Source: Eubacteriales bacterium (GTDB lineage: Bacteria; Bacillota; Clostridia; Oscillospirales; CAG-382). Taken from it: a stretch of DNA of 64,000 nucleotides. The notes beneath the pieces were generated by a model. It was not told the DNA's origin and ran no database searches. It worked only from the letters and a program-made list of their open reading frames with translations. Below, in pieces: positions 5,248 to 59,496 of the stretch. The stretch spans positions 25,939 through 89,938 of the forward strand of contig JAZRXG010000005.1 of assembly GCA_045600105.1 (NCBI GenBank), written 5' to 3'. Each line of letters begins with the position of its first letter. The stretch's first letter is position 1. The translations under genes and the position numbers were made by a program.

Positions 5248-5672
5248 AAATTTCAATTGGCTGCGATCACGGCGGGCTTGAACTCAAAAACGCCATTGCC
5301 GAACACCTCAGAAGCGAAGGTCACGAGGTGACCGATAACGGCACCTATACCAAGGACAGCTGTGACTACCCCGTTTTTGCCAAAAAGACCGCAAAAGCGG
5401 TTTCTTCCGGCGACGCCGACTTCGGCGTGCTCGTCTGCACCACCGGCATCGGTATGTCGATATGCGCCAACAAGGTGCGCGGCGCGCGTGCCGCCCTCAT
5501 CCACGAGACGAGAGGCGCCGAAATGTGCAGACGCCACAACAACGCCAACGTAATATGCTTCGGACAAGCCGTCACCGACGTTGACACCGCCTGCAAATGC
5601 GTTGATATATTCCTTTCCACCCCTTTCGAAGGCGGCAGACACGAACGCCGCGTTTCAATGTTCGAGGACTGA
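5244..5672 (+). CDS. rpiB: Ribose-5-phosphate isomerase B
   Basis: 142 aa, MKISIGCDHGGLELKN... and CTTGIGMSICANK motifs typical of RpiB/LacAB. Confidence 0.85.
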   Translation: MKISIGCDHGGLELKNAIAEHLRSEGHEVTDNGTYTKDSCDYPVFAKKTAKAVSSGDADFGVLVCTTGIGMSICANKVRGARAALIHETRGAEMCRRHNNANVICFGQAVTDVDTACKCVDIFLSTPFEGGRHERRVSMFED

Positions 5673-9196: not shown

Positions 9197-9316
9197 CGGG
9201 ACGCCGAGGACGCCGTCCCCTACAAAAAGCAGCGCCGCCGTTAATAAAAAGGATTTCCGCACGACACCGTGCGGAAATCCTTTCCTATTACGCTTAATGC
9301 TTAAGGCTTAATGCTT
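9197..9316. repeat. Mosaic intergenic repeat, copy 1 (modules A+B+C); module B doubles as the groEL terminator
   Basis: A = CGGGACGCCGAGGACGCCGTCCCCTACAAA (9197-9226). B = 15-bp hairpin AAAGGATTTCCGCAC/GTGCGGAAATCCTTT (9248-9283). C = GCTTAATGCTTAAGGCTTAATGCTT heptamer run (9292-9316). An inverted C-like copy lies at 9081-9100. Confidence 0.75.
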
Positions 9317-9319
9317 TTC

Positions 9320-11279
<1,960 letters not shown>

Positions 11280-52944: not shown

Positions 52945-53304
52945 ATGGCGTTGAACAGAGTTTGCCCGAAGACCGAATTATGTATTGTCGGCGGAGGCAT
53001 TGCCGGGATAAGCGCCGCGATCACCGCTTCGCGCCTCGGGACCAAAGTCGTTCCGGTGCACGAACGTCCCGTATTCGGCGGAAACGCGTCGGGCAATATA
53101 CGTATGTTGATATGCGGAACGCAGCAATACGCCTATAAAGAAACGGGGCTGAACGAAGAGATAAATCCGTCAAATTTTTATTTCAACCCCACCAAGAACT
53201 ATTCTTTGTGGAACGCTCTTCTTTACGACAAAGTCGTATCCGAGCCGAATATCACGCCTCTGCTGAACTGCACCTGCTTCGACGCCGAAACGACGGGACA
53301 TTAA
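52945..53304 (+). pseudogene. FAD-dependent oxidoreductase, N-terminal fragment only (truncated)
   Basis: 119 aa starting with the dinucleotide-binding motif CIVGGGIAGISAA..ERPVFGGNAS. Relatives of this family are several-fold longer. The ORF stops where repeat copy 3 and the AT-rich cassette begin. Confidence 0.65.
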
Positions 53305-53333
53305 CTCTTCACTATTACTTTTTCACTGTTTCT

Positions 53334-53402
53334 CGGGACGTCGAGGACGCCGTCCACTGCAAAGCAAAAAAGGATTTCCGCATTTTTTCGCGGAAATCCT
53401 TT
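53334..53402. repeat. Mosaic intergenic repeat, copy 3 (modules A+B), left flank of the AT-rich cassette
   Basis: CGGGACGTCGAGGACGCCGTCCACTGCAAA (53334-53363) plus hairpin AAAGGATTTCCGC/GCGGAAATCCTTT (53369-53402). Same orientation as copy 4. Confidence 0.8.
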
Positions 53403-53426
53403 TTGCGTATTTAGATATAAAATATA

Positions 53427-53702
53427 TTATATGTTTTTCTTCAATTCATCAAGTTCGTCTTTGATTTTTTCAATGAATTCTTTTTTCTTTTTGGAATTCA
53501 AAAAATCATATTCGCTTCGTCCAACAAGGTAATCGATTGATACGTTGAAAAAATCAGCAAGACGTATTAATGCTTCGCCATCCGGTGATGTTTTTTCGGT
53601 TTCGTAATTAGATATAGTGCGTTGATCAATTCCGGTTGCATCCGCTAAATCTTTTTGTCGCATATCACGATCTTCTCTAAGGTCTTTGATTCTATTTTTC
53701 AT
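53427..53702 (-). CDS. XRE-family helix-turn-helix transcriptional regulator
   Basis: 91 aa. RIKDLREDRDMRQKDLADATGIDQRTISNYETEKTSP is a canonical HTH_3 motif. Confidence 0.88.
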   Translation of the reverse strand: MKNRIKDLREDRDMRQKDLADATGIDQRTISNYETEKTSPDGEALIRLADFFNVSIDYLVGRSEYDFLNSKKKKEFIEKIKDELDELKKNI

Positions 53703-53760
53703 TTTTTCTCCAATATCATAGCTTTTTTCTTTTAATATACTATTTTTTTAGTAAAAACTA

Positions 53761-53789
53761 TTGACATTCCAATATTTAACATATATACT
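53761..53789 (+). promoter_or_regulatory. Putative sigma-A promoter of the small-protein genes
   Basis: TTGACA (53761-53766), 17-nt spacer, TATACT (53784-53789), in the divergent region between the XRE gene and the lipoprotein gene. Confidence 0.5.
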
Positions 53790-53936
53790 ATATTCATACC
53801 AAGATTTTAGTATCCGGATGTAAGTATTCAATTAAAATAGCAGAAATTATATTGGTTGCTTGTTGCTATGGTATTAATTACAAAATAATTTGCTAGTATC
53901 GCATGTTATACTGTTATATTTTAAGGATGATTTATT

Positions 53937-54305
53937 ATGAAAAAACTTTTATTTGTTTATTTGCTATTTTTCACTTTTTGTTTGACAAGTTGCAGCCTAT
54001 TAGATGATATAAATCCTAAAGATGATGCTTATTGTTCTTCTGGAAACGTATCATTAAAATTCAATTTCGTCTCAAAATATTACTTCTTAGAATCCACAAT
54101 TACAAACACCGGAAGCGATGACGCAGATTATGTGACAGTTTATTGGTATTATGTAGATAATTACCAGAATAAAAAGTATGAACGGCAAACTTATATTGGG
54201 ACAATACCTGCCGGGAGCTCGGTTATTTTTTCATCAAGTCATTTTTTCGATCATTATGGTTGCGGGATAATAGATTACGGTATAAGCGAAATAAGGTGGG
54301 ATTAA
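53937..54305 (+). CDS. Small lipoprotein, unknown function
   Basis: 122 aa, signal peptide with lipobox L-T-S-C (residues 16-19), AAGGA RBS, beta-rich mature part. Confidence 0.65.
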   Translation: MKKLLFVYLLFFTFCLTSCSLLDDINPKDDAYCSSGNVSLKFNFVSKYYFLESTITNTGSDDADYVTVYWYYVDNYQNKKYERQTYIGTIPAGSSVIFSSSHFFDHYGCGIIDYGISEIRWD

Positions 54306-54306
54306 A

Positions 54307-54597
54307 ATGCTTTTGTTTATTATTGTCATTCTGATTAGTTTTGCAGGATGGAAAATATTATATAAAATTATTGCTGGTTCTGCAAAGCAAGCCAAAAATT
54401 ATAAAAATAATTATAAAGAAGATGTGAGAACACATGCGTTAATTAACACCATAAACAAAACGCAAGGTAATAATGCTCACGTTGATCAAGATTTAATTAA
54501 CCAACAACAAAACGACAAAAATGGATACTATTTTTGGCTGTTTATTACTATTGCTATTATTATATTTTTCGTGATTATATTCGTTACTTCCAAATAA
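54307..54597 (+). CDS. Small two-TM membrane protein, unknown function
   Basis: 96 aa. ATG lies 1 nt after the preceding stop. N- and C-terminal hydrophobic helices flank a Q/N/K-rich loop. Confidence 0.55.
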   Translation: MLLFIIVILISFAGWKILYKIIAGSAKQAKNYKNNYKEDVRTHALINTINKTQGNNAHVDQDLINQQQNDKNGYYFWLFITIAIIIFFVIIFVTSK

Positions 54598-54786
54598 TTT
54601 CTTTTGTAAATCATAAATCGACAATAGAAAGTCAAATGTCGAAATGCAAAACCGAACCAAAAACCCACACATCAGTATAGCACATCCAATTTCATAATTT
54701 CCAATCACAATCAAAACGTCGGGAACGCCTCCACTACAATATAATAATCCCAAATTACAAATCACTGAAAGCGAGAGATTCATAAA

Positions 54787-55059
54787 TTGAAAGCAAAAAG
54801 AAATGAAATAATTGTTTATATTATTGTATTGATTATTTCGGCACTTATTATATATTTTTTGGCAGAAACGCTTTTCCGTAACCATTTCGGTCTTCTAAGT
54901 GAAAAAGAACGTTTGGCAGCTTTGAACGAATACAATGAATCTCATTATATAGAAATGCACATTTATAAGTGCGGAAATTGCGGAACCGACTTTATCTGCG
55001 TTGACACTGAAACGCCTGCTTTTCAATGCTGCCCTGAGTGCGGAGCACTGTGGAAATAA
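54787..55059 (+). CDS. Small membrane-anchored zinc-ribbon protein, unknown function
   Basis: 90 aa (TTG start per the ORF track), N-terminal TM IIVYIIVLIISALIIYFL, C-terminal CGNC...CPEC zinc ribbon. Confidence 0.5.
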   Translation: MKAKRNEIIVYIIVLIISALIIYFLAETLFRNHFGLLSEKERLAALNEYNESHYIEMHIYKCGNCGTDFICVDTETPAFQCCPECGALWK

Positions 55060-55110
55060 CATTTGACACTAAACGATATTCTTAAAAAATCAATCACTCC
55101 TGACTGAAAT

Positions 55111-55200
55111 CGGGACGTCGAGGACGCCGTCCCCTACAAAGTCAAAAAGGATTTCCGTATCCGCGGAAATCCTTTCTTATTCGCTTAAGGCTTTTATGCT
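55111..55200. repeat. Mosaic intergenic repeat, copy 4 (modules A+B+C), right flank of the AT-rich cassette
   Basis: CGGGACGTCGAGGACGCCGTCCCCTACAAA (55111-55140), hairpin AAAGGATTTCCG/CGGAAATCCTTT (55146-55175), then CTTATTCGCTTAAGGCTTTTATGCT abutting the stop at 55202. Confidence 0.8.
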
Positions 55201-58018: not shown

Positions 58019-58171
58019 AACATTCGGATTCTTTGCAGCGTCACAAACGAAAGCCCATACCGCTTTAATGACATATATGCGTCGAAAAAGCCGTATAGAC
58101 TTTGCGTTTTTATTGTATGACTCTACTGGACAATTTTTCTTATTTCAAAATATTGTCCAATAGACAAGTGA

Positions 58172-59353
58172 TTACAAAGATTCCATTTTCAAAAAATCGC
58201 ATAGCTTTATATGTTGGACTGTGCTGGTGGAATAATCAAGTTCATCATTGCTGATGAGTATTTTTCGGCAGGAATTATCCATATTATTCAGTGCTTTGAA
58301 TTCACGGTTATACGCCTTTTCCTCCGCAACGGACAAAGCCACCTGTATATAATACTGTTTATTTTCTTTTATGGCAACGAAGTCGATTTCTTCTTTTCCG
58401 TTGAAATAAACCTGTAAGGAATACCCCATATATACAAGCTCATTATAGACTATATTTTCAAGATTATGAGAAAGGTCAAACCTGCCGTTCGTGCAGCGTA
58501 TTGAATTCAGGCAAACGTCTTCGTCGTACGTCTTCTGATAATAGTTCAATTCACGCTTTGCTTTGCCGGAATAAAGCCGTACCGTTTCAATCGCAAACGC
58601 CTCTTCCAAATAGCCGAGATACTTTGTGACAGTCGTTACAGAGCAAGGAAATCCATTTGATTTCAGGTAATCGTTGATAGATCTTGCGGAAAATACTCTT
58701 GCGTTGGAAATGAGAACATAATTTGCGATTTTACGGAACGTATCCGTTTTTCGGATGCCATATCGATTGATGATATCATTGATGATAATCGTTTCGTTCA
58801 AATCGTTCAAATATATTTTTTGTGCTTCCGTACCGTCAAATTCAAGTCGTTTCGGAAATCCGCCCCAAACGAGATAATCGGTAACCGACACATATTTGCC
58901 GAGTTCTTCGGCGTATTCACAAAGCTCTTTATACACAAAAGGACGAACGCGAAAAGCAACATATCTTCCCGAAAGTTCTTTTGTGAATTCCTTTGATAAA
59001 AGTTTTGAATTAGAACCGCTGATAAAAACAGAGCAGTCATGAAGTCGTATGGTACGGCAGGCAACCGCCCAATCTTTAACACGTTGAACTTCATCGAGGA
59101 ACACATAACATTTCCCGCTTTTTCTGTGCTCATCGACATAATTTATCAGTGAAACCGCGTCAGGCAGCGTCATCAAAACGGAAGCGTCTTCAAAATCAAG
59201 ATCAATAATGTTATTCGTTTTCGCTTTTATCTCAGACAAAATTTCGTCAAGAATCACTGATTTTCCGCAGCGTCGTATTCCCGTAATAATTTTGATCAAA
59301 TCGCTATCGTAAAAATCACGAACAGGGGCAATATAATGCTCTCTGTAAATCAT
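58172..59353 (-). CDS. AAA-family ATPase with DUF4143-type C-terminal domain (COG1373-like)
   Basis: 393 aa, Walker A GIRRCGKS, Walker B VFLDEVQ, C-terminal nuclease-fold-like region typical of AAA_14/DUF4143 proteins. Confidence 0.75.
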   Translation of the reverse strand: MIYREHYIAPVRDFYDSDLIKIITGIRRCGKSVILDEILSEIKAKTNNIIDLDFEDASVLMTLPDAVSLINYVDEHRKSGKCYVFLDEVQRVKDWAVACRTIRLHDCSVFISGSNSKLLSKEFTKELSGRYVAFRVRPFVYKELCEYAEELGKYVSVTDYLVWGGFPKRLEFDGTEAQKIYLNDLNETIIINDIINRYGIRKTDTFRKIANYVLISNARVFSARSINDYLKSNGFPCSVTTVTKYLGYLEEAFAIETVRLYSGKAKRELNYYQKTYDEDVCLNSIRCTNGRFDLSHNLENIVYNELVYMGYSLQVYFNGKEEIDFVAIKENKQYYIQVALSVAEEKAYNREFKALNNMDNSCRKILISNDELDYSTSTVQHIKLCDFLKMESL

Positions 59354-59375
59354 AAAAGTATTTCACCTCGAAAGC

Positions 59376-59404
59376 AGTATATCACAAGCAAAGCAAAAAG
59401 TCAA
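59376..59404 (-). promoter_or_regulatory. Putative sigma-A promoter of the ATPase gene
   Basis: Minus strand: TTGACT (59404-59399), 17-nt spacer, TGATATACT (TATACT 59381-59376), then RBS GAGGTG. Confidence 0.5.
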
Positions 59405-59496
59405 CAAAATCATTCATTACTAATGGACAATATTGCAAATATTAAAAAATCGTCCAATATGCAATATGCTTTTCTGCGGCAGAAAAATGACTGATG

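Follow-up and report, generated by a model that had tools for sequence, protein, structure and literature searches.

In a 64,000-nucleotide (nt) stretch of a gut Clostridia chromosome (contig JAZRXG010000005.1; "the window" hereafter means this whole stretch, and coordinates count from its first letter), we identified a foreign-looking islet of ~1.7 kb (53406-55109) that is probably an acquired cassette, in which a small XRE-type repressor would keep silent a strong promoter and, with it, an operon encoding a surface lipoprotein, a partner protein with two transmembrane helices (the 2-TM protein), and a transmembrane (TM) zinc-ribbon protein. This degree of confidence applies to the architecture and the regulation of the cassette, and not to its function. 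The regulatory elements of the islet are the following.

53427-53702, minus strand: XRE/Cro-CI-type repressor gene, 91 aa, HTH_3 domain.
53734-53739, minus strand: putative -10 element of the XRE promoter, TATATT, overlapping O2 by 2 nt.
53738-53753: operator O2, a 16-bp palindrome, TACTATTTTTTTAGTA, with 7 nt between its end and the cargo -35 element, which follows it.
53761-53789, plus strand: cargo promoter (promoter scan), TTGACA (53761-53766), 17-nt spacer, TATACT (53784-53789).
53797-53812: operator O1, a 16-bp palindrome, TACCAAGATTTTAGTA, starting 7 nt after the cargo -10 element and lying over the expected transcription start.

The cargo promoter fits the consensus at 11 of 12 positions and is bracketed by two sites of the operator motif TACYAA-N4-TTRGTA, which lie 59 nt apart. 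An earlier reading of this DNA from its letters alone (the sequence-only reading) had remarked on repeated TTAGTA-type words near the promoter, and these words are explained by the two palindromes. When the regions upstream of 15 XRE homologues were aligned, the same layout was observed on the cargo strand: an operator, 7 nt, TTGACA, 17 nt, TATAAT or TATACT, 7 nt, and an operator again. On the XRE strand of these loci, the first operator passes, with its distal half, into an extended -10 element, TGnTAAAAT or TGnTATATT, and it was by position relative to this element that the putative XRE -10 of the window was assigned. The -35, the -10, and both operators are thus common to the aligned intergenic regions, whereas the cargo differs. 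In 33 of 40 homologue loci, at least one motif site was found within 200 nt upstream of the XRE gene, usually two, at approximately -45 and -105; relative to the XRE start, the counterpart of O2 falls between -42 and -51 in most of the loci, and that of O1 between -101 and -111. Within this 200-nt upstream region, the density of the motif is ~236 times the value for the remainder of the loci, and a motif scan of the window's genome found no other convincing operator site. Judged by these alignments, the XRE-operator-promoter unit is conserved with the same geometry in dozens of species. These results supported the view that the XRE protein would act locally, repressing a very strong divergent promoter and regulating its own synthesis, with repression itself suggested by the layout.

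The XRE protein matches HTH_3 (Pfam) over residues 5-59 with 65.6 bits against a cut-off of 23, and ends in a Lys/Glu-rich tail of ~25 residues. Its best NCBIfam match is the RstR family NF041951 (70.7 bits, under the curated cut-off of 80), and the closest solved structure is that of the Xre-family regulator of ICEBs1, ImmR (7t8i, E 1.9e-9). At E <= 1e-5 we found 779 homologues, the best of which are 70-84% identical, 87-91 aa long, and come from gut or rumen Clostridia assemblies. In the mechanism that we propose, the XRE protein would most likely bind as a dimer to both 16-bp palindromes. The upstream site would place it just before the -35 element of a near-consensus sigma-A promoter and over the -10 element of the XRE gene itself, and at the second operator it would cover the cargo transcription start. 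Occupied operators would shut the cargo operon and limit XRE synthesis, and loss of occupancy would fire the strong cargo promoter. The products would then be a lipid-anchored sandwich resembling FxLYD and CARDB domains, a coupled 2-TM hairpin whose cytoplasmic loop is conserved, and, encoded after a 189-nt untranslated spacer, a zinc-ribbon protein with a TM anchor.

This arrangement resembles the Cro/CI-type switches (lambda and 434 OR, ImmR of ICEBs1, and RstR of CTX-phi) in its small HTH_3 protein, in its palindromic operators over divergent promoters, and in a layout that suggests autoregulation. In contrast to these switches, the cassette carries no Cro partner, antirepressor, ImmA-like protease gene, or sensor or cleavage domain; it gates envelope proteins instead of a lytic or transfer program, and it lies between core genes instead of in a phage or an integrative and conjugative element. 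The control logic is ordinary, the cargo families are unnamed, and the boundaries are unusual. For uncultured gut Clostridia, the comparisons provide a comparatively validated operator-promoter-repressor unit that could be reused as a genetic switch.

The loci that share the switch form a set of sister cassettes. Their XRE proteins are 53-84% identical, the twin operators and the consensus promoter are shared, and the cassettes are lower in GC than their surroundings and sit, like that of the window, between core genes. Their divergent cargo differs from locus to locus and mostly encodes envelope proteins; by our own reading of the table of loci, which was not a formal tally, it comprises ~14 lipoproteins, several with BspA-type LRR_5 and Flg_new repeats, and ~8 small zinc-ribbon membrane proteins, some with TM2 or DUF6591 domains. 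The other cargo includes very large secreted proteins, an fn3-domain protein, RCC1-repeat proteins, and bare TM proteins, and in a minority of the loci the divergent gene is an apparent core gene. Some of the sister cassettes also resemble that of the window in having direct repeats of a host terminator at both ends. The cassette of the window differs from them in its three-gene operon of very small proteins and in its long leader; moreover, the family of its lipoprotein/2-TM pair was otherwise found only in contigs of 23-34% GC, and never behind this XRE subfamily. We know of no publication on XRE-gated accessory envelope cassettes of gut or rumen Clostridia, and a literature search found none that describes the present gene arrangement.

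The cargo of the window and the stretches associated with it are arranged as follows.

53937-54305, plus strand: lipoprotein gene, 122 aa, starting MKKLLFVYLLFFTFCLTSC, with a signal peptide, the lipobox LTSC, and an ectodomain.
54307-54597, plus strand: gene for the 2-TM hairpin protein, 96 aa, with its ATG 1 nt after the lipoprotein stop (GAT TAA A ATG).
54493-54885, minus strand: antisense open reading frame (ORF), 130 aa, the longest in the islet, hydrophobic.
54598-54786: spacer of 189 nt, strongly A+C-rich on the plus strand, fold z = 0.17.
54787-55059, plus strand: orphan ORF for a TM and zinc-ribbon protein, 90 aa, with a TTG start, an N-terminal TM helix, a further helix, and a zinc-ribbon-like pair of hairpins, CGNC-x19-CPEC.

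The ORF map and the sequence bore out the sequence-only reading as far as the parts are concerned, in that the XRE gene, the promoter, the lipoprotein, the 2-TM protein, the 189-nt gap, and the zinc-ribbon ORF all lie where it had placed them. That reading had recognized no family for the three proteins; the lipoprotein and the 2-TM protein form a rare and conserved pair that has no name, and the zinc-ribbon ORF is an orphan with no detectable relative. The signal peptide of the lipoprotein (KK, a hydrophobic stretch, and LTSC) fits the lipobox [LVI][ASTVI][GAS]C, and L16 and C19 are invariant in nine family members (alignment A1); the protein is thus a predicted Lgt/Lsp substrate that would be lipid-anchored on the outer face of the membrane. 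Nothing above threshold was obtained for it in Pfam, PHROGs, PADLOC, or NCBIfam, and a word-index search for homologues gave no match. An exhaustive phmmer search over 1.84 billion representatives returned nine matches (best E 5e-30), of which eight are small homologue clusters, 107-130 aa in length, with a lipobox and 32-48% identity. The ninth, P0123 (1696 aa), was rejected as a relative; it is a CUB-repeat protein, and its match is probably compositional. The conserved core of the family reads Y..S.KWN..YYYLE.TI.N.G..DA..V.VYYYY.D...KY....YIG.I.AG.S..F.S. A pattern-based search for lipoprotein loci in GTDB species genomes, JGI metagenomes, and IMG/VR found none.

The AlphaFold2 model of the lipoprotein (mean predicted local distance difference test score, pLDDT, of 87) shows a seven-strand beta-sandwich behind the signal peptide. 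The window lipoprotein scores 13 bits against the FxLYD model NF038353, under the cut-off of 23, and does not match CARDB (PF07705), but its best homologue reaches 21.4 bits against CARDB, just under the cut-off of 22.7. In addition, hhalign aligned the family with FxLYD proteins from Clostridia genomes at 91.3% probability (E 9.5e-7) over a span that includes the hydrophobic anchor. Because of the subthreshold CARDB matches of the homologues and this profile-profile match, the ectodomain is tentatively regarded as a divergent FxLYD/CARDB-like beta-sandwich. To our knowledge, neither domain has an established function, so that membership would not explain the role of the lipoprotein. It shares with the FxLYD, CARDB, and DUF4352-type sandwiches of Firmicutes the form of a single small beta-sandwich anchored on the outer face; it differs from them in lying under all curated cut-offs, in having its own conserved motifs and a dedicated 2-TM partner, and in the tiny size of its family (8 clusters among the 1.84 billion representatives).

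The 2-TM protein is probably translationally coupled to the lipoprotein. Its loop is Lys-rich and Q/N-rich and is predicted, by the positive-inside rule, to be cytoplasmic. The 1-nt junction between stop and start is kept in homologous loci (L111/L112 and L114-L117), in which a lipoprotein homologue is likewise followed by a 2-TM homologue; the latter are 98 and 101 aa long, share 41-43% identity with the window protein, and were matched by tblastn at E 7e-20 and 5e-16. By this comparison, the lipoprotein and the 2-TM protein are a real conserved pair that recurs in two other AT-rich lineages. Conservation as a set, by which the sequence-only reading had proposed to judge the trio, was therefore found in part: the pair recurs, and a lipoprotein homologue was observed once behind a different divergent XRE gene (L125), but neither the trio nor its zinc-ribbon ORF was found anywhere else.

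All contigs with lipoprotein homologues have 23-34% GC, like the islet, and their neighborhoods are accessory in flavor, with DUF4143 ATPases (L114:1-1290 and L125:3496-4683), a UvrD-like helicase (L122/L123), and a DUF3800 gene (L125). The family has a second recurrent partner of 156-191 aa, with an N-terminal FGWQ/E domain, two TM helices, and a charged C-terminal helix (L114:2102-2611, L121:2-472, and L113:5126-5701), which weakly matches DUF2207_C and the PADLOC "4TM effector." In L122-L124, a 65-aa single-TM protein follows the lipoprotein gene; in L118, genes for a DUF2085 protein and for three small membrane proteins with zinc ribbons lie ahead of the lipoprotein homologue; and in L125, an operon for a SHOCT protein, the lipoprotein homologue, and a second tiny lipoprotein faces the different XRE gene (31% identical), which has its own palindrome. 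Diversity-generating retroelements adjoin lipoprotein-family genes in unrelated AT-rich contigs (L118:193-280 / 914-1001 and L125:9272-9331 / 9461-9520); both have a reverse transcriptase and template and variable repeats that differ at adenines, and that of L118 has bAvd. The lipoprotein was considered as their target and this was dropped, since the template and variable repeats lie in other genes. In another contig (L133:1-300), the lipoprotein homologue P0126 lies ~230 nt downstream of an apparent tRNA 3' end (GGTTCGATTCC...CCA-less end), and tRNA 3' ends are typical integration hot spots. The lipoprotein/2-TM pair is rare, appears to have been missed by public gene calling in the window genome, and has its place in the accessory DNA of low-GC Firmicutes.

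The third ORF is probably a gene. Its codon positions (GC1 of 0.42, above GC2 of 0.33 and an equal GC3 of 0.32) are as expected for a coding frame, and its single-sequence AlphaFold2 model (pLDDT 74) has a TM helix at residues 2-34, a second helix, and beta hairpins at 56-73 that carry the Cys pairs. Against the Pfam zinc-ribbon families (Zn_Ribbon_TF, Zn_ribbon_8, and related ones), it scored 16.7 and 15.3 bits, with cut-offs of 29 and 34.4. No terminator and no Rfam match was found in the 189-nt spacer, so that cotranscription with the pair is probable as the simplest reading. The combination of three proteins is plausible because zinc-ribbon membrane proteins occur as cargo of the XRE switch and beside the lipoprotein homologue of L118, and because FxLYD, zinc-ribbon, and TM parts occur fused: the FxLYD proteins of Clostridia genomes have an N-terminal zinc ribbon and a TM helix (L134 and L142) or a lipoprotein signal (L139). 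The order of parts in the window ORF, with the TM helix first and the ribbon last, is reversed relative to these fusions. Remnants of the partner genes of the family (GWQ-type 2-TM, SHOCT, LytTR, and zinc-ribbon) were sought in the leader and in the 189-nt spacer, and none was found.

The composition of the islet sets it apart from the chromosome. Its GC content is 30.5%, compared with 52% for the genome and 56% and 53% for the two flanks, and in 300-nt windows it ranges from 24% to 34% inside and from 48% to 65% around. It is present once in the 2.1-Mb genome, in which no second copy of the XRE gene, the operators, or the cargo was found. The XRE subfamily is patchy, being found in 0 of 11 genomes of the same genus and in 6 of 120 other genomes of the same family, at 49-56% identity. 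The flanking genes (Tex, a DUF gene, a truncated oxidoreductase, and an AMP-ligase) are core genes with no prophage among them. The ORF map and Pfam revealed no transposase, integrase, recombinase, attC, or terminal inverted repeats in the cassette; blastn of its DNA against INPHARED phages and PLSDB plasmids gave no match; and an Rfam scan of the whole islet gave nothing above noise. Because gene order downstream of the AMP-ligase gene differs among same-genus genomes, the empty site could not be reconstructed. The low GC between core genes, the bracketing terminator repeats described below, and the patchiness of the XRE subfamily, taken together, supported the view that the islet is a horizontally acquired, nonautonomous cassette without a recombinase. 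Thus, the part of the sequence-only reading that had envisaged repressor-controlled tiny envelope proteins on an acquired cassette was upheld by the cross-species conservation of the switch, the foreign composition, and the patchy XRE subfamily.

The ends of the islet coincide with two copies of a repeat.

53333-53405: left boundary repeat (copy A), made up of two hairpins, GGGACG..CGTCC and A-tract/stem/T-tract.
55110-55180: right boundary repeat (copy B), in the same orientation as copy A.

The two copies are direct repeats of ~70 nt (51 nt at 90% identity plus 14 of 14 nt), and the zinc-ribbon ORF ends at the right one. Both copies are predicted to form the GC hairpin and the A-tract/stem/T-tract hairpin, and these RNA folds are stable (-34.0 kcal/mol, z = -5.65, for copy A and -30.1 kcal/mol, z = -4.38, for copy B). 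By its predicted structure, copy A can serve as the terminator of two genes, the truncated FAD-oxidoreductase gene and the XRE gene. Copy B would act bidirectionally as well, ending the transcripts of the cargo operon and of the AMP-ligase gene that converges on it. Both belong to a dispersed intergenic family, a GGGACGTCGAGGACGCCGTCC hairpin plus a AAAGGATTTCCG..CGGAAATCCTTT terminator, with 31-50 sites on many contigs of the genome (a further one in the window at 9198-9218) and with members in some relatives. The idea that the copies are private att sites was dropped, given a family dispersed at ~31-50 copies. Nowhere else in the genome, however, is low-GC DNA enclosed by two copies in the same orientation, and the pattern was observed in two sister loci: perfect 58-nt direct repeats (L038:3668-3725 / 5361-5418) and 98%-identical 53-nt direct repeats (L034:4019-4071 / 5324-5376) exactly enclose a unit of lipoprotein cargo, switch, and XRE gene. 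These repeats contain or abut a host terminator hairpin, like the ~70-nt repeats of the window. In addition, the terminator after the gene of an 84%-identical XRE protein in a metagenome contig (L024) closely resembles the dispersed repeat of the window genome. This signature may reflect insertion into terminator sites, with a long duplication left behind and no recombinase in the insert. The cassette of the window adds a case to a recurring pattern of small XRE-gated islets bracketed by duplicated host terminators; if the pattern is general, it would point to an unrecognized route by which envelope genes pass between gut anaerobes without a carried recombinase. As a separate observation, the FAD-dependent oxidoreductase gene (52945-53304, plus strand) ends after 119 codons at the left repeat and contains only the N-terminal Rossmann part; tblastn with these 119 residues found no second genomic copy.

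As to function, our tentative first guess, made by analogy, is a role in envelope protection or in exclusion. An incoming agent, be it a phage, a bacteriocin, or a conjugative apparatus, would either be bound by the ectodomain or find its receptor masked, and the 2-TM protein would serve as a membrane cofactor. Conditional surface display or adhesion is a fainter possibility, suggested by the BspA-type cargo of the sister cassettes. Doubtful, in our estimate, is the broadest proposal, in which the cassettes would form an undescribed class of portable, nonautonomous XRE switches that land at host terminators with duplications of 53-75 nt and silence interchangeable envelope genes, the cargo of the window being a split zinc-ribbon-TM-FxLYD protein and a new inducible barrier against phage, bacteriocins, or conjugation. 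The lipoprotein/2-TM pair lends itself directly to exclusion assays with phage, bacteriocins, or conjugation.

The sequence-only reading had likened the trio to prophage-type superinfection-exclusion, abortive-infection, or toxin/immunity modules, and here it found no backing. The cargo has no match in PADLOC, phage genomes, plasmids, or IMG/VR, only weak PHROGs matches were obtained, all for the zinc-ribbon ORF, and the flanks are core genes; these readings, and our own guess at function with them, therefore remain analogies. In its specific form, the exclusion reading holds that the cassette is the remnant of a lysogeny module carrying a superinfection-exclusion or anti-phage "moron" such as Ltp, Sie2009, or Llp, with the lipoprotein and the membrane proteins hindering the adsorption of a phage or the injection of its DNA, and we consider it unlikely. 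The parts would suit it, being a small lipoprotein and membrane proteins paired with a CI-like repressor on an islet of low GC that lies in an accessory hot spot, as would the variable regions in which the lipoprotein homologues lie, near retroelements, DUF4143 ATPases, a UvrD-like helicase, and a DUF3800 gene. The XRE protein matches PHROG repressor families (in PADLOC, only generic HTH models), and the best of the weak PHROGs matches of the zinc-ribbon ORF is a PHROG of unknown function (E 8e-4). However, the lipoprotein and the 2-TM protein match neither PHROGs nor PADLOC; tblastn with the lipoprotein found nothing in 50,697 phage records (INPHARED) or 72,556 plasmids (PLSDB), and the IMG/VR and DNA searches found nothing; the Foldseek matches to viral models (BFVD) are weak and uncharacterized. 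No integrase or phage gene flanks the cassette, and the sister cassettes lie between core genes. In addition, an exclusion gene of a lysogeny module is normally expressed together with the repressor, not repressed by it. Exclusion lipoproteins (Ltp of TP-J34, Llp of T5, Cor, TraT/TrbK, and YddJ of ICEBs1) share with the window protein a length of ~120-140 aa and a place in accessory DNA, and its predicted surface location would suit the blocking of an incoming particle or apparatus; but no match to any of them in sequence or fold was found in PHROGs or by Foldseek, the window protein lies outside any phage or conjugative element, and it would be repressed by the adjacent regulator instead of being expressed with it.

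We regard as improbable an orphan immunity module against a bacteriocin or a contact-dependent toxin, in which the lipoprotein and the small membrane protein would be the counterparts of LanI and LanH, respectively, and would stay silent until required. The layout of a lipoprotein with a small TM protein resembles the established lantibiotic immunity pairs, by analogy only, and directly downstream of the homologous operon of L114 lie two-component genes, one for a response regulator with LytTR and one for a kinase of the AgrC type; bacteriocin loci are often controlled by such systems. This LytTR neighborhood is confined to one lineage, though; no bacteriocin, ABC transporter, or toxin gene was found nearby in the window or in most of the homologue contexts, and solved LanI structures are not among the top 50 Foldseek matches in the Protein Data Bank (PDB).

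Several observations weigh against the account of the cassette given above. The domain scan found no sensor domain in the XRE protein. At ~140 nt, the 5' leader of the cargo far exceeds that of the sister cassettes in length (the distance from O1 to the cargo start is ~125 nt, against an estimated few tens of nt in sister loci, where cargo starts are not firmly assigned), so that a second cargo promoter is possible; no Rfam family matches the leader, and its predicted fold is unremarkable. The unexplained antisense ORF extends across the whole spacer into both neighbors, the 2-TM gene at its 3' end and the zinc-ribbon ORF at its 5' end; this antisense frame has no Pfam match and no visible ribosome-binding site, and its codon-position signals are weaker than those of the sense ORFs. 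The zinc-ribbon ORF has no detectable homologue in word-index and tblastn searches, begins with TTG after a ribosome-binding site that is weak, and cannot be called significant by its length, because a single ORF of at least 90 aa appears in 55 of 1000 shuffles of the cassette (5.5%). Finally, the Foldseek matches of the lipoprotein are generic beta-sandwiches with TM-scores of 0.4-0.5; examples are ApaG, DUF1425, and the Fn3-like domain of GH3 enzymes, and E in the PDB is 1.8e-3 or higher.

Some of these points would also suit a largely inert passenger, a decaying low-GC fragment beside an XRE switch in which only the pair, or nothing, is functional and the zinc-ribbon ORF is a chance frame. 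The lack of relatives and the poor start of that ORF, the long leader and the 189-nt spacer, an antisense ORF longer than every sense ORF, and the truncated FAD-oxidoreductase gene next door all fit such decay. It would also fit that the three cargo genes appear to be uncalled in public annotation: their exact protein sequences are absent from a public collection of 15 billion proteins in which the XRE protein of the same genome is present. Being AT-rich, the genes were probably missed by a gene finder trained on this genome of 52% GC. What makes an inert passenger improbable is the integrity of the parts. All four frames are intact, and none of 1000 mononucleotide shuffles of the cassette yielded four or more ORFs of at least 90 aa; the lipobox and the fold-defining residues, the 1-nt coupling junction, both operators, and the consensus promoter are all preserved, and the zinc-ribbon ORF retains two CxxC pairs and a confidently modeled TM helix.

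A toxin-antitoxin-like or abortive module, with the small hydrophobic 2-TM protein as a membrane-damaging toxin held off by the XRE protein, has very little in its favor: a near-consensus promoter under a dedicated repressor, a tiny 2-TM product, and the occurrence of XRE antitoxins in many type II systems (with weak NCBIfam matches to the HipB, MqsA, and PezA families) are outweighed by the divergent orientation, where XRE antitoxins are cotranscribed with their toxin, by the absence of any toxin domain from the cargo in Pfam, PADLOC, and NCBIfam, by the leucine-rich-repeat (LRR) lipoproteins of 170-650 aa and other nontoxin cargo gated by the same switch, by the lack in the 2-TM protein of the charged C-terminal tail typical of holins, and by the conservation of that protein elsewhere with the lipoprotein and without any XRE gene.

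In the surroundings of the cassette, an AAA_14/DUF4143 ATPase gene lies at approximately 58127-59467 of the window, ~3 kb away; such genes are common in accessory regions, and its position may be a coincidence.

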